Shown here: one piece after another, positions 1-33,144 of the stretch
How positions within the stretch are numbered: position 1 is the first letter of the stretch
Layout of the letters: the number at the start of each line of letters is the position of its first letter
Source of the DNA: Patescibacteria group bacterium
GTDB lineage: Bacteria; Patescibacteriota; Microgenomatia; 0-14-0-10-38-17
Assembly: GCA_050953885.1 (NCBI GenBank)
Contig: JBMNNJ010000001.1
Span: 335,437 to 399,436 of the forward strand
DNA length: 64,000 nt
Direction: 5' to 3'
Notes under the pieces: generated by a model
Databases searched by the model: none
What the model was told of the DNA's origin: nothing
What the model saw: only the letters and a program-made list of their open reading frames with translations
Position numbers and translations under genes: made by a program

Positions 1-1917
1 GTCGGTTTTTTTTCTTTAGAGATGAGCCAGGAAGAATTGGTTGACCGTCTTCTTGTTCGTCAGGCACAAATTGACAGCTGGAAGTTAAAAACCGGCCGTT
101 TGGACGAAGATGATTTTGCCCGCCTTTCCGAAGCGATGGGAACTTTAGCGGAAGCGCCTCTTTTCATTGACGACACTCCGGGAATTTCGGTGGCGGAAAT
201 GCGCACTAAGGCCCGACGCTTACAAACAGAAAAAAGTTTGGATCTTATTGTCGTTGACTACCTTCAACTCGTTCACGGCCGTAATTTGGAAAATCGCGTT
301 CAGGAAGTTTCGGAAATTTCCCAAGGATTAAAAAATTTGGCCCGGGAACTTAAAGTGCCCCTCGTGGCTGTTTCCCAGCTTTCCCGAGCAGTAGAAATTC
401 GCGGCGGCCAACGCCCCCGTCTGGCAGACTTGAGGGAAAGTGGCTGTATTAGTGGTGATGCTCTTATCCAAATGGCCGACGGAGAACGAATCGCCATTGA
501 AAAATTAGCTTTAAAAAATAAACCTTTTTTGGTAATGAGTCTAAATGAAAAAACCTGGCAGCTTGAACCGGCCTTGGCAAAAAAAGCCTGGTGCAGTGGA
601 AAAAAATTAGTTTTCTGCCTTAAAACCCAATTGGGGCAAGAAATTAAAGCCAGTGCTAATCATCGCTTTTTCACCTCTTCTGGCTGGAAAAGGCTTGACC
701 AGCTTAAAGTAGGGGATTATATTGCTCTTGTTCGCTCTTGGAAAAACTTACCCCAAACAAAGCCAACCATGACCGCCGCTGAACTAGCCCTTCTTGGTCA
801 TCTTATTGGTGATGGCTGTACTCTTCCCAAACATGCCGTCCAATACACCACCAACGAAAAAGAATTAGCCGAAACGGTTGTTAAGGCTAGCAAGGATGTT
901 TTTGGGGAAAAAATCAACCCGAGAATAAAACGAGAACGAAATTGGTGGCAAGTTTATCTGTCTGCCGGTTATCCCTTAAGCCGCCACCAAAGAAACCCTC
1001 TTGCCGCCTGGCTGGATAAACTAAAAATATGGGGTTATCGCGCCAAAGAAAAAAGAGTCCCAGAAAAAGTTTTTAAACAGCCCCCTCAGGAAATCAGCCG
1101 ATTTTTACATCACCTCTGGCTTACCGATGGCAGTATCACCTTAAGCGGGAAGAAAAAAGAGCGACCGATAATATATTATGCTACCAGCAGCGATGTTTTA
1201 GCCAAGGACGTCCAACATTTGCTACTTCGTTTAGGAATCATCGCCAAAGTTCGGCGGGTAAAACAAAGAAATAAAGGAAAGGATCAATGGCATGTTATTA
1301 TTACCGGTCAGCCTGATATAACCGCTTTCATCGCTATTGTCGGTACCAGTGGGAAAAAACTAAAAAATCTAAATCTTATTAAAAAATATTATCAGCAGCA
1401 CCAGCATAATCCCAATAAGGACATTATTCCTAAAACGATGTGGTATTCTTTAGTAGAACCAGCGCGGCAGGCCCTAAAAATGAGCCAAAGAGAAATGCAA
1501 AAGCAAATAGGAGTTCATTATTGCGGGTCAACCCTTTTTAAGGCCAACATGAGCCGCCAGCGGGCTTTAAAAGTTGCTCAAGTTGTTCAGAACAAAACTT
1601 TGGAAAAAATCGCCAAAAGCGATGTTTATTGGGATAAAGTCGTTTCCATTAAGCCCTTGGGGGTAGAAAAAGTTTATGATATAGAAGTTCCCAGTTACCA
1701 CAATTTTGTTGCCGAAAATATTGTTATCCATAACTCCATCGAGCAGGATGCGGACGTGGTGATGTTTCTTTATCATGAAGACGAGGACGATCGCGAAAAT
1801 GTGGTTTTGGAAATCGCCAAACATCGCAATGGCCCTTTGGGACAAATTAATCTTCGCTTTATTCCCAAGCAAGTAAGCTTCTACCCGGTCGAGAAAAGGT
1901 TGGGGGAAGGGAAATAA
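1..1917 (+). CDS. dnaB: Replicative DNA helicase DnaB, C-terminal part interrupted by an intein. The 5' end lies upstream of the window; the frame is open to position 1.
   Basis: The translation aligns to DnaB from the conserved 'FSLEM(P)SEQ' region onward ([14 protein letters not shown] motifs). The host sequence breaks at ...DLRESG | C(445)ISGDALI... and resumes at ...VIHN(1734) | [16 protein letters not shown], the conserved C-terminal DnaB motif. There is no in-frame stop between position 1 and the annotated ATG at 22. Confidence 0.85.
445..1734 (+). mobile_element. DnaB intein (~430 aa) carrying a LAGLIDADG homing-endonuclease domain
   Basis: It starts with Cys (CISGDALI, block A-like) and ends in ...VIHN followed by the extein Ser. 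Internal LAGLIDADG-like motifs are [11 protein letters not shown] and LWLTDGSIT. Removing 445..1734 restores a contiguous DnaB motif. Confidence 0.8.
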
Positions 1918-1984
1918 AATTACTAGCTAAAGGGTAAGAAAAAATTAATGCAAAAATCAAAAATCAGAATTCAAAACCAAGTTC

Positions 1985-2140
1985 AAAGACCAAAACCATA
2001 AATTAAAACTCAAAACGCAAATGGCAAATGTTAAAACTACATGTCAAATCTTAAATCTTTCTTAGAATTTAAAATTATTTTTTCAGATTTGAGTTTTGAG
2101 TTGTAGTTTTGAGTTTTGCGATTTAACATTTGCGTTTATT
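1985..2140. repeat. MITE-like imperfect-palindrome element, family A ('CAAAACTCAAAAC...GCAAATGTTAAA' words with inverted terminal repeats)
   Basis: It is the reverse complement of 4120..4262. Its ends AAACGCAAATG...CATTTGCGTTT are inverted repeats. Confidence 0.7.
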
Positions 2141-2183
2141 TTCGCGTTAACTCGCGTATTTTAGTAATTTAACAATTTACTCT

Positions 2184-2849
2184 ATGTTCCTAAACTTGCC
2201 TCTCATCAGCTTCCCCGTCTTTGGTTTGGTGTTATTTTTGGGCTTCCTCTTTTCCTCTTTTTGGTTTTTCAAAAACACCAAAGAAGAGTTTGTTGATGAA
2301 GAGCAGGCAATCAGCTTTATTTTTTGGATTTTCTTAAGCTGGCTTTTGGGTAGCCGCGTTATTTTTTTCTCAACTAACTTTAATTCTTTTCCTTCTTTTT
2401 GGACTCTTTTTCTGCCCTGGCAATATCCCGGCCTTTCTTTTGCCGGCGGAATATTGGGGATAGCTTTGGCCGCAAAAATCTGGGCGAAAAAAAACAAGTT
2501 TAATCTTTGGCGAGTTTCTGACCCGGCTCTTTTCCCTCTTCTTCTCTTTCAAGAATTCTTTTTTCTTGGCCAATTTTTGGCCACCCAAGAAAATTTTTAT
2601 TTTTTTGCCTTTCTTATCTTTCTTGCCGGCTTTCCTTTAGGGCTTTGGATTAAGAAGAAATATCGTTCTTTTTCCTGGTATCCTTCAGGAAAAATCGGTT
2701 TGACATTTTTAGCGGTTTTCGCTGTTACCTTACTCGCCTTTTGTCTACTTGCTTTTTGCCCTCCTTTTGGGTTATACTTTGAAGGTTTAGGAGCTCTTTT
2801 AATAGGAGGGCTAGCCGGTTGGCTAATTTACCAACGTCGCCAGCCATAA
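2184..2849 (+). CDS. Polytopic integral membrane protein, 221 aa, very Phe/Leu-rich; weak Lgt-like features only
   Basis: A long ORF with multiple hydrophobic segments. A 'GG..G...AAK......K...W.VSD.A..PL' stretch loosely recalls prolipoprotein diacylglyceryl transferase but lacks the GR.GN signature. It is preceded by the common upstream ATTCGCG/TTAACAATTTA module. Confidence 0.5.
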   Translation: MFLNLPLISFPVFGLVLFLGFLFSSFWFFKNTKEEFVDEEQAISFIFWIFLSWLLGSRVIFFSTNFNSFPSFWTLFLPWQYPGLSFAGGILGIALAAKIWAKKNKFNLWRVSDPALFPLLLFQEFFFLGQFLATQENFYFFAFLIFLAGFPLGLWIKKKYRSFSWYPSGKIGLTFLAVFAVTLLAFCLLAFCPPFGLYFEGLGALLIGGLAGWLIYQRRQP

Positions 2850-2864
2850 AAATTGAGAATAAAG

Positions 2865-3275
2865 ATGGCTAAGAAAAACAAAACCCAAACCAAAAATAAG
2901 CCAGAAAAAACAGCGATTCGTTTTCCGGCCAGCGTCTTAAAGCCCGTGGGCGACTTTTTGGTCAAAGAAGAAAAGGAAATTTTAAAAAAATTGCATCTTC
3001 TTTCCAAGGAGGATCCCTTTGCCAACCCGGCCCGCTTGGCAGATAATGCTGCCCCCGATAACGAGGCCTTGGAACAAATCGATCATCTTAAAAACCAAAG
3101 CCTGCAGGAACAGATGAAAAAAAACCTTATCCAAGTACGGCGAGCCCTGACACGTCTTAAAATCGGTAAATATGGCATCTGCGAGGAATGCGGCCAAATG
3201 ATTGATACCGACCGGCTGATGATTTATCCTCACGCCACCTTATGCGTTAAATGCGAGCAAAAGAAAAAGAAATAA
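2865..3275 (+). CDS. DksA/TraR-family C4 zinc-finger protein
   Basis: The C-terminal CEECGQMIDTDRL...CVKCE four-cysteine zinc finger is typical of the DksA/TraR family, with a coiled-coil-like N-terminal part. The ORF track starts at TTG 2853; ATG 2865 (MAKKNK) is the more likely start. Confidence 0.75.
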   Translation: MAKKNKTQTKNKPEKTAIRFPASVLKPVGDFLVKEEKEILKKLHLLSKEDPFANPARLADNAAPDNEALEQIDHLKNQSLQEQMKKNLIQVRRALTRLKIGKYGICEECGQMIDTDRLMIYPHATLCVKCEQKKKK

Positions 3276-4030
3276 AAGTGGGCGTTGACTATAATTTAAT
3301 TGACTACTCCTCTTACTGGCGAAACCGAGAGTATGAATGGGAAGCAGAAAAGATTGCTTTGGAAAAATTGTTTTCCCATATCCCCGGGAAAGAACAAAAA
3401 ATAATCTTAGAAATAGGGGGAGGGTTTGGCCGTCTGGCCGCGATTTACGCCCCTTTTTTCAAAGATGTTATTCTTCTTGAGCCGTCAGAAAAGCTTTTAA
3501 AAGAAGCGCAAGCAAATTTAGCCGCCCAAAAAAACCTCACCTTTCTTGCCGGAAGAGGGGAGGCGATTCCCCAAGAGGGCAAAAGCGTTGATGTGGCCTT
3601 AATGGTCCGTGTCAGCCACCATTTTCAGGATCTTAGCCCGGTGCTAAAAGAAATTAACCGTATCCTTAAACCCCAGGGGTTTTTAATTTTAGAATTTGCC
3701 AATAAAATTCATTTCAAAGCGCGCTTGCGGGCTTTGGGAAAAGGTGATTTTTCTTTTCGCAAAAACTTAACTCCGTTTGACCAGCGCCGGCAAAGCAGAA
3801 AAGACCCCGAAGTGGTTTTCTTAAATCATCATCCCCAAGCGGTTCTTAACGTTCTTTCTGAAAATAACTTTGAAGTTAAAAAAATCCTTTCCGTTTCCAA
3901 CTTTCGCTCCCCATTTTTAAAAAAAGTTCTTCCTCAAAAATGGCTTCTTTTTTGGGAAAAAAGCACCCAAAGTATTTTGGCCCCTTTTTGGTTTGGCCCC
4001 TCAATTTTTATCTTAGCCAAAAAAAATTGA
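3251..4030 (+). CDS. Class I SAM-dependent methyltransferase
   Basis: EIGGGFGR (motif I glycine-rich loop), DVILLEPS and VDVALMV spacing fit the methyltransferase fold. ATG 3251 overlaps the DksA-like gene by 25 nt; an in-frame GTG at 3278 is an alternative start. Confidence 0.7.
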   Translation: MRAKEKEIKVGVDYNLIDYSSYWRNREYEWEAEKIALEKLFSHIPGKEQKIILEIGGGFGRLAAIYAPFFKDVILLEPSEKLLKEAQANLAAQKNLTFLAGRGEAIPQEGKSVDVALMVRVSHHFQDLSPVLKEINRILKPQGFLILEFANKIHFKARLRALGKGDFSFRKNLTPFDQRRQSRKDPEVVFLNHHPQAVLNVLSENNFEVKKILSVSNFRSPFLKKVLPQKWLLFWEKSTQSILAPFWFGPSIFILAKKN

Positions 4031-4111
4031 TCCTCAATAAGCTGCTTCTCATTAATTCAATCCGCCAGCTGGCGAACAAAAGTCAAAAATTGTCTTCTGT
4101 ATCTGGTATTA

Positions 4112-4262
4112 AATATAAAAAACTCAAATGTTAAATCGCAAAACTCAAAACTACAACTCAAAACTCAAATCTAAAAAACATTTTTAAGTTCTAAGAAAGA
4201 TTTAAGATTTAACATGTAGTTTTGCCATTTGCCATTTGCGTTTTAAGTTTATTTTTCGCGCT
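4112..4262. repeat. Family A element, inverted copy; about 95% identical to 32960..33098
   Basis: AAACTCAAATGTTAAATCGCAAAACTCAAAACTACAACTCAAAACTCAAATCT...TTTGCCATTTGCCATTTGCGTTTTAAG. Confidence 0.7.
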
Positions 4263-4288
4263 AATTCGTGTCTTTTAACAATTTTAAC

Positions 4289-4909
4289 TTATTTCTTTGT
4301 CTTTCCTTCCTCAATTTCCGCCATAAATTGATTTACTCCCGCCGCCCAAGAGCCATTGGAAAGAGGAGTGTATTTGCTCATAATTTCCTCCGGCGTAGTT
4401 AATCCCTGATTAAGGTAATCCTCACGTAAACCACGGGCCACCGTTTCAATTGCTTCCTCCCAACCGGAAAAACCAAGCGTACCGCGGCTATGGATTCCCC
4501 AGCCCCAAGCGTTATAAGAACCCGGGGGAATTTTTTTGCCTAAATTCGATTCCTGTTGGGCAATGGCCACCAAAAGCCTATAGTCAAGATCATATTTTTG
4601 GGAAATAGCAAAAATATAATCGGCGTAAGGCTCAAGAGGCGAGTGGTAATAAGCTAAGTATTGTTTTAGCAAAACCGGCCGGGAATCAACGCCGCGAACT
4701 TCAAAAGAAAGATTACCACCGGTAGGGGGAAGAGCAGTGTAAAGCCGTAAAGAAGGCATAAAAGCCGCCGCTCCGACTACCGCTTTGCTACCCGCCTCTT
4801 TATTCTGGCCTAAAAGCCAAAAAGAGGAAAAAAGCGCCAACGGCGATAAAAACAAAAAAATCACCATCAAGAGCAGTTTGCCCAATAACGATTTTTTTAA
4901 TTTATCCAT
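4289..4909 (-). CDS. Membrane-anchored peptidoglycan-hydrolase-like protein (lysozyme-like; GH23 or GH73-type motif)
   Basis: An N-terminal signal-anchor (LLLMVIFLFLSPLALF) is followed by LVAIAQQESN...NAWGWG. This resembles the catalytic Glu region of lytic transglycosylases and FlgJ-type glucosaminidases (A.A..ES/ESGWG). Confidence 0.55.
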   Translation of the reverse strand: MDKLKKSLLGKLLLMVIFLFLSPLALFSSFWLLGQNKEAGSKAVVGAAAFMPSLRLYTALPPTGGNLSFEVRGVDSRPVLLKQYLAYYHSPLEPYADYIFAISQKYDLDYRLLVAIAQQESNLGKKIPPGSYNAWGWGIHSRGTLGFSGWEEAIETVARGLREDYLNQGLTTPEEIMSKYTPLSNGSWAAGVNQFMAEIEEGKTKK

Positions 4910-4965
4910 AAAAAACCCATCTCTCTAAACTTTAATAAAACAAAAAGTATTTGTCAAGTCAAGGT

Positions 4966-5692
4966 AATAAGTTAAGATACATATGCGACATTGATAGTTA
5001 GTGGATCACTACGCCAAGGCCTATCCCATCTTTAGTAGAATTAAAGGCTTAAAGGAGGTGAAAAACATGCTTTCAAGCCTAAGACAATTCTCTAAGAGTG
5101 AGGCAGCTCAACAAAGAATGAAGATTATTAAGTTCTACCAACAATACGGAGAAAAAGCAACTAAGAATTAAACACTCACCTAAACCAAGGGGCTTTGGCG
5201 ATATTGTTTCTGATACCGTAGAGAGAATCACCGATGGGATTAGGGACTATTTTATCTCTACTGTTGATGCCAAGATGAAATTTGCCCTGACTCTTAATTA
5301 CCAAAGACTAACCAGTAAGAAGATGAGAGATTTTTACTTTAGATTTAAAGATGTCTACCCGGGGAAAGTGGCTGTTTGACAATCAGATAATGGCGGTGAG
5401 AACTTAGGAGTCTTTGACCAACAATTAGCTAAGGATAAGATTCCCATTATTTCATCTCTCCCCGTTGTCCTAAGATTGATACCTTGGTGGAAAGATACCA
5501 CCGCACTTCTCAAGAGGAGTTTATTAATCCCCACCTTGACACTATTCATGACAAAGGGGTCTTTCAAAGAAAACTATCTGATTATTTAATCTGGGACAAC
5601 ACGGAAAGACCCAATCATTCTTTAAACCTTAAGAGCCCCTTGGAATATTTCATTGAAAAAGGAGGCATGTCGTAAAAGTACTTGGCTTAGAC
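4966..5692 (+). mobile_element. Decayed insertion-sequence remnant (DDE/rve-type transposase fragments), copy 1 of 2 identical direct repeats
   Basis: A 727-bp block is identical to 8300..9026 (offset 3334 bp). It carries an N-terminal HTH-like ORF fragment (MLSSLRQFSKSEAAQQRMKIIKFYQQYGEKATKN*) and rve-core fragments ...SDNGGENLGVFD... and ...PRCPKIDTLVERYHRTSQEEF... in different frames. The conserved DDE Glu (ERYHRT) is present but the gene is internally deleted and frameshifted. Confidence 0.8.
5063..5675 (+). pseudogene. Transposase pseudogene (IS481/IS3-like rve integrase core, truncated and frameshifted)
   Basis: The HTH fragment stops after 35 codons. The DNGGE(N) and ERYHRT motifs lie in frames +1 and 0 respectively, about 35 codons apart as in intact rve domains. 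Total coding capacity is about 200 aa against about 350 aa for an intact transposase. Confidence 0.7.
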
Positions 5693-5698
5693 AAAAAC

Positions 5699-5727
5699 TT
5701 GACTTTTACCCCGTTGTGTTATAAGAT
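5699..5727 (+). promoter_or_regulatory. Sigma70-like promoter directly outside IS copy 1, facing the radical-SAM gene
   Basis: TTGACT (5699-5704), a 17-nt spacer, then TAAGAT (5722-5727). A strong RBS AAAGGAGAG (5951-5959) sits 6 nt before ATG 5966. Confidence 0.5.
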
Positions 5728-5965
5728 TTACGTATCTCATAATAATCAATGGTAGGCAATTTTGCTGTCTATTTTTTGGTTATTATTAAAGATCATTTTT
5801 TTCAGGCAAAGTAAGCGGTTTTTGACAAAAGCGTCAAAAAAAACCAAAATACTTTGTTTTGGAAAATATTCAGTTTTGGTCCGCCTCAGGTGGAGCACCT
5901 TGACAAGTTGTAATTACCTCCATCAATGATTCCTTCTGGCCTTAATTTATAAAGGAGAGATTCTC

Positions 5966-7294
5966 ATGTTTCGCACTCTATCCGCCCCGGTCGTTTTACA
6001 GTGGGAAGTTACTCCGGATTGTAATCATGCCTGTCTACATTGTTATAACTATTGGAGAGGGTTTGGTGAGGAGCCAAGCGCATCAGAAGATGTCTGTGAG
6101 ATCTATCGGGCTGCAACCAAAGAAATTATCTGTAACAGGGTTTTTTCTGTGGTGATTACCGGTGGAGAACCGCTTTTGGTTTTTGACCAAGTAAAGCCAC
6201 ATATCCGACAGCTGGTGCAAGCAGGCGTTCATGTTTCACTCAACACTAATTTGTCTCTTTTTAACAGACAGATAGCTGTTGAGCTCAAGGAGCTTGGAGT
6301 TCGTTCCATTTTGACGTCTCTCCCTTCCTTTGATCCGGAGACCAATGATTACATCACCCAAACCCCGGGATCTCATCGTCGGATCACCCGCGGGATACGT
6401 ACTGCTCTCGAAAGTGGTTTCAAGGTAGCCGTCAATATGGTAGTAACCAAGGTAAACCTCTCGCAGGTTTACCAAACCGCCGAATATGTAGCCAATCTAG
6501 GAGTTAAATCCTTTGCGGCTACCAAAGCAGCTACCCCAAACAACTGCCCCGATTTCAGTGCATTTGCTCTAGGCCTTGATGAATTTCGTTGGATGTTGTA
6601 CGAACTTATCAAAGCTAAAGAGCGATTGGGTCTAGAAAGCATCGATTCACTTGAATTCTACCCTTATTGTGCCTTCGACGAGGTAACAAGAGCAGTTTTC
6701 AGTAGTCGAATGTGCAGTGCCGGCAAAACCAATTGCACAATCGGTTTTAACGGCCAAGTTAGGCCTTGCTCGCGAGCTGAACATACCTACGGTGATATTC
6801 GGGAAGGGCTAACTAACGCTTGGGGTCGAATGACTCCATGGAGAACAAATGAATGGTTGCCGGAACAATGCTCAACATGTCAGTTGAAAAACAAATGTGG
6901 AGGAGGTTGCAAGGTAGACGCGCAGAGAACAACGGGGGATATCAAACAACCAGATCCAATTTGTGATTTCTCACAGTTGCCCGTGCGTTTACCTTCTGTA
7001 CGGGAACCCAGCCCTGATGGAACAGAGTTTCTTGTCAATCCTAGCATGGTCTTTCGACCGGAAAGTTTTGGAGGGATACTCTACGTTTCTTCTGGGCACT
7101 GGGCGATAGTTGTTCAGGAGTTGTATCAGCTATTTGCATCTGGAAAGGAGGTGGTGAGTATCGAAGATATCGTATCCGCTTTGGGTTGTTCTCTAAATGA
7201 GGCAACCGCTACAGTGTCGTATCTTGTTCGCAAATTCATTCTGAAGGTAGCAAAAGGGGGTTCTTATGCCAGCGGGAATTGTTTCGTTGCTTGA
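5966..7294 (+). CDS. Radical SAM enzyme with C-terminal SPASM domain and a probable C-terminal winged-helix (RRE-like) extension; candidate peptide-modifying maturase
   Basis: CNHACLHC (CX3CX2C radical-SAM cluster motif) and GGEPLL (SAM-binding). The SPASM signature is CSTCQLKNKCGGGCK (C-x2-C-x5-C-x3-C) plus upstream Cys/Gly and a downstream PICDF Cys. The ~110-aa tail (IEDIVSALGCSLNEATATVSYLVRKFIL) looks like a winged-helix peptide-binding domain. Codon usage differs from neighbouring housekeeping genes. Confidence 0.85.
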   Translation: MFRTLSAPVVLQWEVTPDCNHACLHCYNYWRGFGEEPSASEDVCEIYRAATKEIICNRVFSVVITGGEPLLVFDQVKPHIRQLVQAGVHVSLNTNLSLFNRQIAVELKELGVRSILTSLPSFDPETNDYITQTPGSHRRITRGIRTALESGFKVAVNMVVTKVNLSQVYQTAEYVANLGVKSFAATKAATPNNCPDFSAFALGLDEFRWMLYELIKAKERLGLESIDSLEFYPYCAFDEVTRAVFSSRMCSAGKTNCTIGFNGQVRPCSRAEHTYGDIREGLTNAWGRMTPWRTNEWLPEQCSTCQLKNKCGGGCKVDAQRTTGDIKQPDPICDFSQLPVRLPSVREPSPDGTEFLVNPSMVFRPESFGGILYVSSGHWAIVVQELYQLFASGKEVVSIEDIVSALGCSLNEATATVSYLVRKFILKVAKGGSYASGNCFVA

Positions 7295-7412
7295 GGAGCA
7301 AGAGGTCAGTTGCGTCATCGGCTGTGATCAAGACGGCGGTTCTGACCCGTGCGACTCTTGCGACAACGGCGGTGATTGCGTTTGTGATGCTGGGGATGGT
7401 ACCTGGACCTAA
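7266..7412 (+). CDS. Small Cys/Asp/Gly-rich peptide (48 aa), candidate RiPP precursor (SCIFF/ranthipeptide- or sactipeptide-like)
   Basis: The peptide is MPAGIVSLLEEQEVSCVIGCDQDGGSDPCDSCDNGGDCVCDAGDGTWT, with 6 Cys and 9 Asp in the C-terminal 33 residues after a short acidic leader. Its ATG at 7266 overlaps the 3' end of the radical-SAM/SPASM gene in another frame and is preceded by a GGGGG RBS-like run. It is not in the supplied ORF track because it is under 60 aa. Confidence 0.55.
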   Translation: MPAGIVSLLEEQEVSCVIGCDQDGGSDPCDSCDNGGDCVCDAGDGTWT

Positions 7413-7620
7413 TCAAAGTGGCTTGATGACGGTCACAGTATCGCCTCAGTAGTTCTAAGAGCATCTATTGGTGAAAACCAAAATCACAACTTGTTTGTGG
7501 TTGCTTTTTAAGCTAGATGCTCTTTTTCTTTTTCAAATTTGCTATAATGCTCTAAGAGAATTATCGAGGCCGTAGCGCCGCTGTATAATAATCTGAGTCG
7601 TTCATTTTAAAATAAAAGGT

Positions 7621-8283
7621 GTGGTTTTTGTCGTTAAATATTCACTAGAAAAAGATATTTGGAATCATTTGAATTCGAACTGGAGATTTCGTTTTCGAAA
7701 ATATGGAAGAAAGAATATTCAGAAAAAACTGCTTCAAACTTATCCCGAAGAATATCGCCGCAATCTCGCTCAAGCCAAAACAGAAAAAGAAGCCACGGTT
7801 GTTATTAAAAGTTTTTTAGCCTCTTTACCTAAAAGTTTTCAAAATACTACCCCAATAATTGGCAAAGGAGTCGAGAAAGTTCTGAACGAAGAAAAAAAGC
7901 AGATAATTTCTTCTTTAGAAAAACTTTATGGTAAACCTTTTCCATTTAAAGAAATAACTGTTTATCTTACCACTGGCACTATTCACCCATATAATTATAA
8001 AGAAAGATGGTTTATGACTGGAAGAAATTCCAGCCTTGATAAGCATATTAAAACCGCTAAACACGAACTTAACCATTTTATGTTTTATTACTATTATCCT
8101 CATTTAAGGAAGAAGTTGGGTGTTGAGAAATATGAAAGACTAAAAGAGGCTTTAGCAATATTCACTAATCCTGAAGGTAATGATAAGCCCGATGTAAAAA
8201 AGTTGGAGAAATATCTAAAAACGCTTTCAGGTCAACCAATGGATGAGATTATAGAGAAAGCTTTGGGAAGTAAATATTTGTAA
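7621..8283 (+). CDS. Hypothetical protein with an HExxH zinc-metallopeptidase-like motif; AT-rich (~33% GC), compositionally foreign
   Basis: A 220-aa ORF with a GTG start and KTAKHELNHFMFYYY (HELNH = HExxH). Two extended -10 boxes (TGCTATAAT 7533-7541, TGTATAAT 7582-7589) lie upstream. GC is far below the flanking genes. Confidence 0.55.
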   Translation: MVFVVKYSLEKDIWNHLNSNWRFRFRKYGRKNIQKKLLQTYPEEYRRNLAQAKTEKEATVVIKSFLASLPKSFQNTTPIIGKGVEKVLNEEKKQIISSLEKLYGKPFPFKEITVYLTTGTIHPYNYKERWFMTGRNSSLDKHIKTAKHELNHFMFYYYYPHLRKKLGVEKYERLKEALAIFTNPEGNDKPDVKKLEKYLKTLSGQPMDEIIEKALGSKYL

Positions 8284-8299
8284 GTTCTCGAGAGTACTG

Positions 8300-9026
8300 A
8301 ATAAGTTAAGATACATATGCGACATTGATAGTTAGTGGATCACTACGCCAAGGCCTATCCCATCTTTAGTAGAATTAAAGGCTTAAAGGAGGTGAAAAAC
8401 ATGCTTTCAAGCCTAAGACAATTCTCTAAGAGTGAGGCAGCTCAACAAAGAATGAAGATTATTAAGTTCTACCAACAATACGGAGAAAAAGCAACTAAGA
8501 ATTAAACACTCACCTAAACCAAGGGGCTTTGGCGATATTGTTTCTGATACCGTAGAGAGAATCACCGATGGGATTAGGGACTATTTTATCTCTACTGTTG
8601 ATGCCAAGATGAAATTTGCCCTGACTCTTAATTACCAAAGACTAACCAGTAAGAAGATGAGAGATTTTTACTTTAGATTTAAAGATGTCTACCCGGGGAA
8701 AGTGGCTGTTTGACAATCAGATAATGGCGGTGAGAACTTAGGAGTCTTTGACCAACAATTAGCTAAGGATAAGATTCCCATTATTTCATCTCTCCCCGTT
8801 GTCCTAAGATTGATACCTTGGTGGAAAGATACCACCGCACTTCTCAAGAGGAGTTTATTAATCCCCACCTTGACACTATTCATGACAAAGGGGTCTTTCA
8901 AAGAAAACTATCTGATTATTTAATCTGGGACAACACGGAAAGACCCAATCATTCTTTAAACCTTAAGAGCCCCTTGGAATATTTCATTGAAAAAGGAGGC
9001 ATGTCGTAAAAGTACTTGGCTTAGAC
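8300..9026 (+). mobile_element. Decayed IS remnant, copy 2 (identical to 4966..5692, same orientation)
   Basis: Identity is exact over 727 bp. The identical predicted ORF pairs 5355..5567/8689..8901 and 5484..5675/8818..9009 confirm the 3334-bp offset. Confidence 0.8.
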
Positions 9027-9208
9027 ATAAGGTTGCCATTTTTAAAAAAATAAGTTAAAATAACTTTTATTATGAACAAAACTCATCAAAAAAACCAGCC
9101 GGTGCCGAAAAAAGATAAAAAAGAGGTCTTAGCAAAAGCGACTTTTTTCCGTCCCCAGCCGAAAAAAATTTTTCGGGTGGCCCAGCATCGCGTTTAACCA
9201 AACTTCCC

Positions 9209-10066
9209 ATGGCGCAAATAAATCTCAACAAACTTCCTGATAATAGTGCGGAAATCTTGGTCAAAGTCCCCTGGGAAGAAGTTGAAAAAGAATACCAAAA
9301 AGCCCTTGAGGAGCTTCAAAAAGAAGCCACTCTTCCCGGCTTTCGCAAGGGCAAGGCTCCCAAGGCTCAAGTGGAAAAATCAATTGGCAAAGAAAAAATT
9401 TATCAAGAAGTAATCGAGCAATTAATACCCCGCCTTTACCAAGAAGCGCTAACAAGCCAAAAAATTAACCCCATCATTAGCCCTAAGGTAGAGCTCATTG
9501 CGGCCCAAGAAGGAAAAGATTGGGAAATAAAATTTACCACGGCGGAAAAGCCAACGGTTAGCTTAGGAAATTACCAGGAGGAAATTAAAAAAATAAACAC
9601 CAAGGGAAAAATTTGGACACCAGAAAGCGAAGAGAAAAAAACCCCAGAAGAAAAAGAAAAGGAAGAAAGAGAAAAGCTTGACCAAATTATAGAAACAATT
9701 CTAAAAGCAAGCCAAGTAACCTTACCGGCTATTTTATTGGAAAACGATGTTAACCAGAAACTTGCCGGCTTAATCGAAAAAACCGAAAAGTTAGGCCTTA
9801 CTTTGGAGCAATACCTTGCTTCCCTTGGCAAAACCGCCGCCGAAATTCGCCGCGAATACGAGGAGGAAAGCCGTCGTAATTGGCAGTTAGAATTGGTTTT
9901 GGCAAAAATTGCCGACGAGGAAAAAATTACCGTTAGCGATGAGGAAATTAACCAATTTATCGCCAAAACGCCGCAAAGTGATCAAAAAGCCCTAGAACAA
10001 CAACGCTACTTAATCGCCGCCATGCTAAGACAACAAAAAACCCTCAATTTTTTAAAAAATCTTTAA
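9209..10066 (+). CDS. tig: Trigger factor (short form lacking the PPIase domain)
   Basis: The N-terminal ribosome-binding signature LPGFRKGKAP (GFRxGxxP) is followed by a C-terminal arm-domain-like region. At 285 aa there is no FKBP insert. Confidence 0.75.
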   Translation: MAQINLNKLPDNSAEILVKVPWEEVEKEYQKALEELQKEATLPGFRKGKAPKAQVEKSIGKEKIYQEVIEQLIPRLYQEALTSQKINPIISPKVELIAAQEGKDWEIKFTTAEKPTVSLGNYQEEIKKINTKGKIWTPESEEKKTPEEKEKEEREKLDQIIETILKASQVTLPAILLENDVNQKLAGLIEKTEKLGLTLEQYLASLGKTAAEIRREYEEESRRNWQLELVLAKIADEEKITVSDEEINQFIAKTPQSDQKALEQQRYLIAAMLRQQKTLNFLKNL

Positions 10067-10109
10067 AAAACTTGCAAAGCGCCAAAGCTTATAGTAGAAT
10101 AGCTATAAG

Positions 10110-10712
10110 ATGAAAAGCCAGGGCCAAAGCCAAAAAACAGCCAGCAGCGCTCTTGGTGAAGAGCTAAAAAGAACTCTAAGGGAAGAACTAACCCAAAATT
10201 TCCCCGCGGAAATTACCGCCCAAATTCAGGGAGAAAAACCTGCCTCCCAGGAAATTCTTCCCGGCCAAAGTGTTAATCTTACTGAAAAAGTTAACCAAGA
10301 ACAAAAACCTCCCTTTATCCCTTCTTTTTATCAGGAAAAATCGCCGTTTATTTTGAAAGAAAGCGCGACGGAAATAGAAACTAAAATTAGTATCCAAAGC
10401 TTGCGGCAAGAAATCCAAAAAGAAAGCCAGAGAGTAGAGGAGGCGGCGGTTAACTTAAGCCAAGAGCTGGCTTCAAGCGTGGCCGAGGAAAATCTTTTTC
10501 CTCACCAAGCTACCCAGGAACACCTTTCTTTTTTAGAAAACCTCTTAAAAACCTTGCGCGTTTTTCGGGAAAAAATCGAGGATAGCCAAGTTTGGCTAGC
10601 CGCCTCAAGTCAACGCCAAAGCCGACGCAATTTTTTCTGGGGACAGGTAAAAAAATCCGGCAGTAAATTTCTTCTTTCTTCCGATCGTACCCCCGCCACC
10701 CAGACAGGGTAA
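10110..10712 (+). CDS. Hypothetical protein (low-complexity, Gln/Glu/Ser-rich)
   Basis: A 200-aa ORF with no recognisable motif. Confidence 0.4.
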   Translation: MKSQGQSQKTASSALGEELKRTLREELTQNFPAEITAQIQGEKPASQEILPGQSVNLTEKVNQEQKPPFIPSFYQEKSPFILKESATEIETKISIQSLRQEIQKESQRVEEAAVNLSQELASSVAEENLFPHQATQEHLSFLENLLKTLRVFREKIEDSQVWLAASSQRQSRRNFFWGQVKKSGSKFLLSSDRTPATQTG

Positions 10713-13211: not shown

Positions 13212-13409
13212 AGGGAATGAGAAACGAATAGATACGAAAAATAAACTCAAAATGCAAATGGCAAATGGCAAATGGCAAAACTACATGTCAAATGTTAAAA
13301 CTTTTTAAAGCTTAAAGTTATTTTTTAGATTTGATCCGCCAGTTGGCGGATTGAGTTGTCGTTTTAGTGCTGGTGCAGGGCCAGCTAGCGGAGAGGATCA
13401 TCCCCGTAG

Positions 13410-29919: not shown

Positions 29920-29996
29920 GTATTAAATAAAATTCAAAATTCAAAAGTTAAAAGTCAAAAGTACAAGTTAAAATTCAAAAATAATAAATAAACTCA

Positions 29997-30140
29997 AATC
30001 TTAAATGTCAAAACTCAAAACTACAACTCAATCCGCCAGCTGGCGGATCAAATCTAAAAAAACAACTTTAAACTTTAAAAAAGTTTTAACATTTGCCATG
30101 TAGATTTAACATTTGACATTTGCGTTTTGAGATTTTTTGA
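29997..30140. repeat. Family A element carrying an embedded 16-bp perfect palindrome TCCGCCAGCTGGCGGA (30032-30047)
   Basis: The module-within-module arrangement recurs. Other perfect copies of the palindrome are at 11223-11238, 29281-29296, 32302-32317, 37994-38009, 39346-39361 and 41360-41375, with about 10 degenerate copies more. Confidence 0.7.
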
Positions 30141-30769: not shown

Positions 30770-31073
30770 GTATCAAATAAAATTCAAAATTTAAAATTCA
30801 AAAGTTAAAAGTCAAAGATAATAAGTAAACTCAAATGTTAAATCGCAAAACTCAAAACGACAACTCAAAACTAAAATCTAAAAAGCAACCTTAAGCTTTA
30901 AAAAGTTTTAACATTTGCCATGTAGATTTGACATTTGCCATTTGCGTTTTGAGTTTACTTTTCGCGTCCATTCGTTTTCCATTCGCGTCCATTCGCGTAT
31001 TTCATTTCATGGTAGCGAAATTAAGAAGAATTTGCAAGCAAGACAACAACAATCAAGATAAAGTAGGGGAGGA

Positions 31074-32959: not shown

Positions 32960-33098
32960 CAAACTCAAAACTCAAATGTTAAATCGCAAAACTCAAAACT
33001 ACAACTCAAAACTCAAATCTGAAAAACACTTTTAAGCTCTAAGAAAGATTTAAGATTTGACATGTAGTTTTGCCATTTACCATTTGCGTTTTGAGTTT
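32960..33098. repeat. Family A element (near-identical to 4120..4262)
   Basis: Direct sequence comparison. Confidence 0.7.
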
Positions 33099-33144
33099 AT
33101 TTTTCGTGTCCATTCGTTTTCCCTTCGCGTTAATTCGCGTCTTT

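Follow-up and report, generated by a model that had tools for sequence, protein, structure and literature searches.

A radical SAM/SPASM peptide operon between two identical IS481-like remnants in a Patescibacteria genome, with signs of exchange by homologous recombination

Organization of the locus

A 64,000-nucleotide stretch of a Patescibacteria group bacterium (assembly GCA_050953885.1, contig JBMNNJ010000001.1, positions 335,437 to 399,436 of the forward strand; hereafter the window) was analyzed for a cassette in which a putative peptide-modification operon, the cargo, lies between two direct copies of a decayed insertion sequence (IS). The cassette is inserted between a gene for a lytic transglycosylase-like protein (the ‘hydrolase’) and tig. 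Positions are given in window numbering, L-numbers denote contigs fetched for comparison, and IS2 denotes a second, distinct IS481-like element. Coordinates of the features are collected in Table 1.

The segments 4966-5693 and 8300-9027 are base-identical direct repeats of 728 bp, spaced 3334 bp apart. A preliminary description of the window had reported the same pair at 727 bp, and identity, orientation and spacing were confirmed with this one correction. Just beyond the repeat ends, identity between the copies falls to 30-45%, and no third copy was found within the window. Of the neighbors named earlier, a peptidoglycan hydrolase and tig, the second was firmly identified (Trigger_N, E 1.4e-31), and the first had a sub-threshold match to the Pfam SLT domain only. 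NCBI entries for the window proteins carry locus tags ACOX5S_01725 and ACOX5S_01740 and accessions MGI6775990.1 to MGI6775996.1. The insertion point lies between the back-to-back promoter-like elements (-35 boxes) of the hydrolase (TTGACA-17-TAAAGT, 4957-4929, minus strand) and of tig, and therefore neither is disrupted.

Table 1. Coordinates and main attributes of features at and around the cassette (window positions unless a contig is named)
Feature	Position	Strand	Details
Hydrolase, SLT-like (lytic transglycosylase-like) protein	4289..4909	-	206 aa; Pfam SLT E 0.002, under curated cut-off; ACOX5S_01725
Target-site duplication, left	4960..4964		CAAGG; other register AAGGT, 4961-4965
Left IS copy	4965..5693	+	IS481-family non-autonomous derivative; ~368-bp internal deletion D1, one in-frame stop, frameshifts (alignment vs ~1.1-kb L014 copy)
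Cargo leader ‘A’	5694..5965	+	Promoter TTGACT-17-TAAGAT at 5699-5727 and ~240-nt untranslated leader
Radical SAM/SPASM enzyme, putative peptide maturase	5966..7294	+	442 aa; Pfam Radical_SAM 2.2e-21, SPASM 1.6e-4
Precursor peptide (open reading frame)	7266..7412	+	48 aa, 6 Cys; leader ...GIVSLLEEQ... then Cys/Asp-rich core
Terminator-like branched hairpin and T-run	7457..7534	+	After precursor gene; fold -27.1 kcal/mol, z -4.4
HExxH protein	7621..8283	+	220 aa; 111 homologues, no Pfam domain
Right IS copy	8298..9027	+	730 bp, both TG...CA termini intact; 8300-9027 same as left copy
Target-site duplication, right	9028..9032		TAAGG; other register AAGGT
Right flank	9033..10066	+	Promoter-like TTGCCA-17-TAAAAT 9033-9061; 41-aa open reading frame 9072-9197; tig 9209-10066
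Recombination tract	9114..10684		1,571 bp; covers tig and DUF5660 gene; 100% identical to empty-site lineage (mismatch maps vs L006, L024)
Promoter-edge junctions	5694-5727, 9028-9061; L016 ~993-1030; L031 4014-4050; L065 3068-3105
Palindromic repeat copies	2006-2140, 4117-4274, 13235-13334, 29979-30138, 30827-30975, 32967-33117

The repeats as whole, non-autonomous IS copies

The preliminary description had seen broken pieces of an rve/DDE transposase in different frames, and translation of the repeat recovered all three: frame 3 holds the N-terminal fragment MLSSLRQFSKSEAAQQRMKIIKFYQQYGEKATKN together with VERYHRT, and frame 1 holds ...SDTVE... and QSDNGGEN with an in-frame TGA. The joined conceptual transposase had its best match in the NCBIfam IS481-family model NF033577 (E 2.9e-15, profile positions 139-284 of 284), with 56.6 bits against a cut-off of 224, a shortfall explained by survival of the C-terminal half of the transposase only. 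The same joined protein matched Pfam rve_3, and proteins related to the remnant carry HTH_32 and rve_3.

The boundaries of the element were taken from a contig with an unrelated context (L014), which has a ~1.1-kb IS copy 89-94% identical to the window repeat, with ends TG...CA and a perfect 5-bp duplication (TAACT/TG...CA/TAACT). The start and end nucleotides of the window repeat coincide with the ends of this IS, and ~368 internal bp (deletion D1) are gone. Each repeat is thus a complete, non-autonomous derivative of the IS rather than some arbitrary stretch that was duplicated, in support of the earlier view of whole decayed IS copies in direct orientation around a discrete cargo. IS481-family elements have TG..CA termini and target duplications of 2-15 bp (PMC10045372); both traits were found in L014, and the termini also in the right copy of the window. 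At the outer limits of the unit, the right end (...GACA) is intact. The left outer terminus reads T-AATAAG, not TGAATAAG, and all contigs that have this junction lack the G of the terminal TG.

Both copies of the window have deletion D1, as do L015, L024 and L033, and two distinct left and two distinct right junctions adjoin it. The copies thus qualify as non-autonomous (MITE-like; MITE, miniature inverted-repeat transposable element) derivatives, with an internal deletion, both ends kept and several sites occupied. D1 may have spread either by transposition or by recombination.

Both window transposase genes are dead (internal deletion, stop, frameshifts). No intact copy of the cognate IS was found in the 64-kb window of the 597,657-bp contig or among the close relatives found by homologue search, and even the L014 transposase is split into two open reading frames. 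Exact matching of a 47-mer common to all IS copies returned no genome contig, no viral contig, and among metagenome contigs L017 only, which is the same contig as L015. IS2 encodes an intact transposase of 372 aa; this is only 31% identical to the remnant and IS2 has different ends, and IS2 was therefore rejected as the autonomous partner.

States of the insertion site in related metagenome contigs

Contigs related to the window showed the site in four states. In the empty state (L006, L008, L010-L013), 4965 is joined directly to 9031 and the hydrolase gene and tig are adjacent, reading ...GTCAAGTCAGGGTTGCCATTT...; the left flank of these contigs is about 91-93% identical to the window (~8% diverged). 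This adjacency without the insert had been proposed as a check, and was looked for and found. A CA(A/G)GG(T) motif occurs once in the empty sites (...GTCAAGTCAGGGTTGCC...) and on both outer sides of the whole unit in the occupied allele. The inner junctions (ACA/AAAAC and AGTAC/TG) differ from the outer ones with which they would pair, the left copy lying within CAAGG...AAAAC and the right copy within AGTAC...TAAGG.

The solo state was seen in L024, where a hydrolase flank and one IS copy, both 100% identical to the window, are followed by the tig flank. Two contigs (L023, L026) represent a third state, with the 1,224-bp IS2 exactly between the left flank and the IS copy (positions 752-1975 of L023, reverse complement) and AGGT duplicated. 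The full IS-cargo-IS structure was present in the window and in two independent Joint Genome Institute (JGI) assemblies: L001 is a 99.6-kb contig ending exactly at 9027, and L002 covers 3103-9151 with the full structure. All four junctions were seen in many samples.

The right flank of L024 is the same as that of the window up to 9125, and beyond this point L002 (full) and L024 (solo) share native variants at 9126, 9128, 9132 and 9140. As these two contigs have the same native right flank, the full and solo alleles differ only by the 3,334-bp unit and belong to one lineage. The window itself carries another sequence here. The tract listed in Table 1 matches the empty-site lineage, the DNA around it is 8-10% diverged from that lineage, and L002 and L024 carry the native allele. 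The tract lies outside the cassette and is a recent import by homologous recombination, direct evidence of such exchange at the locus.

In L015, a relative at greater distance (5-8% diverged), the D1 IS sits at the same tig junction; the IS is 93.8% identical to the window, and the flank is 91.8% identical to the window and 95% to L024. The IS is therefore older at this site than the identical pair. In L015 (5-997 and 2062-3149), the IS-tig segment is 92-94% identical to the window, and on its left lies thrS, with a protein only 40-44% identical to the window ThrRS; either the contig is chimeric at the IS, or another cargo adjoins this IS there. In a Logan contig (L003; 1-407 joined to 399-4878), cargo from 5758 is joined to an inverted piece of a methyltransferase gene (3511-3917) via TTTGCT microhomology, which represents either an inversion variant or a chimeric artefact.

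Cargo at other sites and mosaic IS alleles

Cargo variants of ~98-99% identity were found in L020 and L030-L034. In three contexts, the module begins on its left at position 5694: next to the repeat (window), next to another sequence (X/A', L005), and next to an IS2 remnant ending in ACA (L030/L031/L034). In the last group, the module follows rpsT and a DDAH-like gene, and its left edge is preceded by ‘ACA’ and an inverted ~28-nt remnant of an IS2 end (L030 ~1355-1386). In L005, the edge is preceded by the 3' end of another gene (...RKVWKEDKIKAQENSELKDKI and stop; positions 1-140), with no IS there. The preliminary description had proposed an outward promoter at this side of the left copy. The TTGACT-17-TAAGAT element is present at the positions given, outside the IS and inside the cargo, and is kept where cargo occurs without an IS on that side. 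It is therefore the cassette's own promoter, and its reading as an IS-borne promoter was rejected on the same two grounds.

Between 5698 and 5771, L005 differs from the window by 9 mismatches (~88%) and is 100% identical from about 5772 onward; the jump at about 5772 marks a recombination breakpoint. In the same contig, the first 35 nt of the cargo recur after the IS copy (3392-3426), as in a circle or tandem junction. The junction at the other cargo edge, AGTACTG/AATAAG, is identical in L020, L030-L033 and L005. Three IS alleles adjoin this one cargo/IS junction: the window D1 allele, a ~95% identical D1 allele (L033), and an allele 82-93% identical with a different deletion, D2 (L030/L031). 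One site cannot gain two deletions and several alleles by itself, which argues for replacement by recombination or gene conversion; the earlier proposal of such exchange among the copies is borne out by these mosaics. Among the fetched contigs, full IS-cargo-IS was seen at the hydrolase/tig site only, and elsewhere only cargo with the right-hand IS. One contig (L029) has a cassette 81-88% identical, without an IS, beside ddl.

Gain and loss of the cassette

IS-bracketed cargo and recombination between IS copies are textbook behavior. With moderate confidence, homologous recombination between IS copies is proposed as the route by which the cassette comes and goes, in preference to autonomous composite transposition. 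A solo D1 copy would have been resident upstream of tig first. Homologous recombination with another copy of this IS, one already linked to the cassette, would then have brought the cassette in, which amounts to integrating a 3,334-bp ‘IS + cargo’ segment or circle in Campbell fashion; the cassette could leave by the same route, with a solo copy left behind. Recombination or gene conversion would also explain the 100% identity of the two copies. With neither transposase gene functional, the element cannot transpose by its own enzyme, and the split junction pairs are those predicted by recombination between two independently inserted copies. This reading is the best supported one in accounting for the outer duplication, split junctions, copy identity, solo allele, mosaic IS alleles and dead transposases together. 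The preliminary description had suggested that the unit could be lost through its repeats; the L024 solo allele is the predicted product of that event, or equally the substrate for gain.

Several points weigh against recombination as the route. The outer duplication is no less expected if the complete composite transposed with the help of a transposase acting in trans. Neither a donor with an IS on both sides of the cargo nor a free circle was observed directly, and the circle or tandem junction (cargo-IS-A) occurs in L005 only, with a different, unexplained left neighbor. The solo allele is equally compatible with gain and with loss. The search for an intact IS covered 64 kb of the 598-kb contig, L015 may be a chimeric contig, and a single short-read assembly cannot separate an integrated cassette from a solo copy plus a separate circle.

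A second reading, possible at a rather low probability, is that the whole unit transposed as a composite transposon into the empty hydrolase/tig site with a transposase acting in trans, the solo allele arising later by recombination between the repeats. Non-autonomous IS derivatives can be mobilized in trans, both copies are end-to-end IS derivatives in direct orientation, and a ~5-bp duplication surrounds the whole unit and is single in empty sites. Duplications of 5 bp are made by this family (L014), within the TG..CA termini and 2-15-bp duplications of IS481 (PMC10045372). However, no intact cognate transposase was found, that of L014 being split into two open reading frames and that of IS2 31% identical with other ends. 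The G of the terminal TG is missing at the left outer end wherever that junction was seen, the full unit is known at one site only, and a diverged relative already has the IS alone at the tig junction. With dead transposases, no intact copy found, a damaged left end and a single site, the movement as a classical composite transposon suggested by the preliminary description was not upheld.

It is very unlikely that the structure was made by assembly, with a chromosome that holds the solo IS only and cargo elsewhere, or on a small circle sharing the IS, threaded in by the assemblers. In short-read graphs, an integrated copy looks like a circle sharing the 728-bp repeat; several contigs terminate at the limits of the repeat (L001, L027) or slightly within it (L025, L028), and the L005 cargo-IS-A junction and the solo allele L024 would both fit. 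Against this, the same order was recovered in three independent assemblies (window, L001, L002), the window is part of a 597,657-bp contig of a ~0.6-Mb-class genome, and cargo-IS-tig is unbroken in L003, L004, L007 and L009. A 3.3-kb unit without a replication gene could not persist as a free circle. The preliminary description had named such an artefact as its own refutation; with three assemblies and four junctions recurring in many samples, this outcome is improbable.

That the cargo is native to the site and two IS copies inserted independently on either side was dismissed, even though the IS group lies repeatedly 5-6 nt upstream of -35 boxes and the cargo and tig promoters are both such sites, since the empty sites join the outer flanks precisely with the motif once and neither copy has a matching duplication of its own; the solo allele also has identical flanks, and the cargo is present in other contexts.

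The cargo operon

The cargo is predicted to be a self-contained operon for a ribosomally made and post-translationally modified peptide (RiPP), with its own promoter, of a type that recurs in many Patescibacteria. A radical SAM/SPASM gene, identified by its Pfam domains, adjoins a Cys-rich precursor gene, and the 6-Cys peptide is conserved across loci: the leader motif (GIVSL-type) and the CD-repeat core recur beside homologous enzymes in L019, L029 and seven GTDB loci. The enzyme reached no NCBIfam equivalog cut-off; its best sub-threshold models were GeoRSP, NirJ2, mycofactocin and PapB, the last with 77 bits against a cut-off of 340. With all NCBIfam equivalogs far under their cut-offs, it was not placed in a characterized maturase family (PapB, SCIFF maturase, AlbA). 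The search for homologues gave about 950, of which all with a name belong to Patescibacteria groups.

A TATAAT box (7543-7548) lies between the terminator-like hairpin and the HExxH gene. The hairpin stretch is nearly invariant relative to L029, while coding DNA there is 81-88% identical. An Rfam scan of 4000-9500 gave nothing credible. Invariant residues of the HExxH family are H148-E149-x-x-H152 and E176. The AlphaFold model of the protein (predicted local distance difference test, pLDDT, 95.7) had weak Foldseek matches (E > 0.2), nearly all of them to M1/M4/M61 zincins, EryP and selecase. The protein is probably a zincin-type metallopeptidase, and it is a candidate leader peptidase. Together with its homologues it appears to form a new, uncharacterized family. 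Among 30 GTDB species genomes, nearly all of them Patescibacteria, the radical SAM gene was directly upstream of the HExxH gene in 11, and a transposase-like neighbor occurred at one locus only. The working hypothesis is a ranthipeptide-like product whose leader would be removed by the HExxH protein.

A copy of the three-gene cassette, 51-58% identical, was observed in a 411-kb contig (L019, 1180-2880 and 5001-7288), 2 kb from a large serine recombinase gene; this setting is a hint that mobile elements of other kinds may carry the cassette too.

Composition was compared among the 51 window genes. The radical SAM gene has 46.6% GC (84th percentile) and a GC content at third codon positions (GC3) at the 55th percentile, and its codon-usage distance exceeds that of all other window genes of at least 350 aa. 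With 32.1% GC and 25.8% GC3, about 3.8 standard deviations below the mean, the HExxH gene is the lowest of all 51 genes. The earlier label ‘compositionally foreign’ thus holds for the HExxH gene and fails for the radical SAM gene by GC and GC3. An origin of the cargo outside the phylum was rejected, the homologues being Patescibacteria. The cassette family appears native to Patescibacteria, and ‘foreign’ is only partly justified.

Comparison with known systems

Tn6330 (ISApl1-mcr-1-ISApl1) resembles the cassette in its ~2.6-kb cargo between two direct IS copies, in the two-IS and one-IS forms found in populations, and in cargo taken with its own upstream region (PMC5821093). It differs in that ISApl1 is a functional IS30-family element and Tn6330 transposes, whereas here two dead deletion derivatives of the IS481 family are present, no second insertion site of the whole unit is known, and the cargo is a RiPP-type operon in a bacterium of the Candidate Phyla Radiation (CPR), not a resistance gene. 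In IS26 pseudo-compound transposons and translocatable units, direct IS copies likewise bracket a cargo (PMC6807381, PMC6952201). The mobile unit proposed here, ‘one IS + cargo’, would similarly join a resident IS, and inner junctions are without a new duplication in both. IS26 uses its own IS6-family transposase in a targeted conservative reaction, whereas host homologous recombination would act here; the remnant is of IS481 type, and the IS6/IS26-family transposase that defines an IS26-type translocatable unit was not found. The TG...CA termini and short target duplication (5 bp in L014) agree with the IS481 family (PMC10045372), and the rve DDE remnant matches the IS481 model below its cut-off. 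The present elements differ from the family as 730-bp non-autonomous deletion derivatives and as a subgroup apparently placed 5-6 nt upstream of -35-like hexamers.

Cys-Asp thioethers are the products of PapB-type enzymes (PMC9413430). Ranthipeptide/sactipeptide clusters share with the cargo a radical SAM/SPASM gene beside a short, 6-Cys, Asp-rich precursor and a peptidase-like gene downstream. SCIFF peptides are a related case for comparison. The precursor differs from those of ranthipeptide clusters in having mostly adjacent C-D, not C-X3-D; the enzyme is under every curated equivalog cut-off, and its HExxH partner belongs to an uncharacterized family.

Mobile-element-driven gene flux is, to our knowledge, poorly documented in CPR/Patescibacteria, with their tiny, streamlined genomes, and no paper on composite transposons in CPR was found in the literature search. 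The locus offers a natural series (empty, solo IS, IS with second IS, IS-cargo-IS) in which a single lineage gains or loses an accessory peptide-modification operon, and homologous recombination has left clear footprints. It also points to a phylum-wide, uncharacterized RiPP-type cassette with a Cys/Asp-repeat precursor and a new HExxH family, and to possible promoter-edge targeting by the IS. If recombination between IS copies is the route, the finding is useful and not surprising, a rather usual instance of genes gained and lost via repeats of mobile elements.

IS junctions at possible promoter edges

At right-end IS junctions, a TTGxxx -35-like hexamer begins 5-6 nt past the IS end in 6/7 independent junctions: those of tig, cargo A, L016, L031 and L065, and with a weaker match L014. 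A -10 box usually follows at 17 nt. IS2 shows the same relation to a promoter at its left end in two contexts. The pattern was noticed post hoc in a small sample of seven junctions, and no description of such a trait for the IS481 family was found in the literature. A further contig search aimed at more independent junctions yielded ten copies of one and the same context. It is a tentative and rather improbable idea that this IS481-like subgroup inserts at the upstream edge of sigma-70-type promoters and so delimits ‘promoter + operon + IS’ modules with fixed limits that are shuffled among promoter sites and genomes by recombination across IS copies. In the present case the left limit is 5694 in all three contexts, and the right limit is always the IS. 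Promoter-edge insertion, if real, would explain how promoter-led operons become IS-bounded modules, and would amount to a cassette-exchange system for accessory operons (e.g. a RiPP cluster) in minimal genomes. In L065, the genes downstream of the IS are again radical SAM/SPASM.

Additional observations

A palindromic intergenic repeat family of ~135-150 bp, with at least six copies 76-93% identical and a long hairpin fold, was observed in the window (Table 1), one copy lying just beyond the 3' end of the hydrolase gene; the family may be a MITE- or REP-like element (REP, repetitive extragenic palindromic). The first open reading frame of the window (22-1917) is the C-terminal part of a DnaB helicase, and the dnaB-type helicase gene in L001 carries an intein with a LAGLIDADG endonuclease domain.

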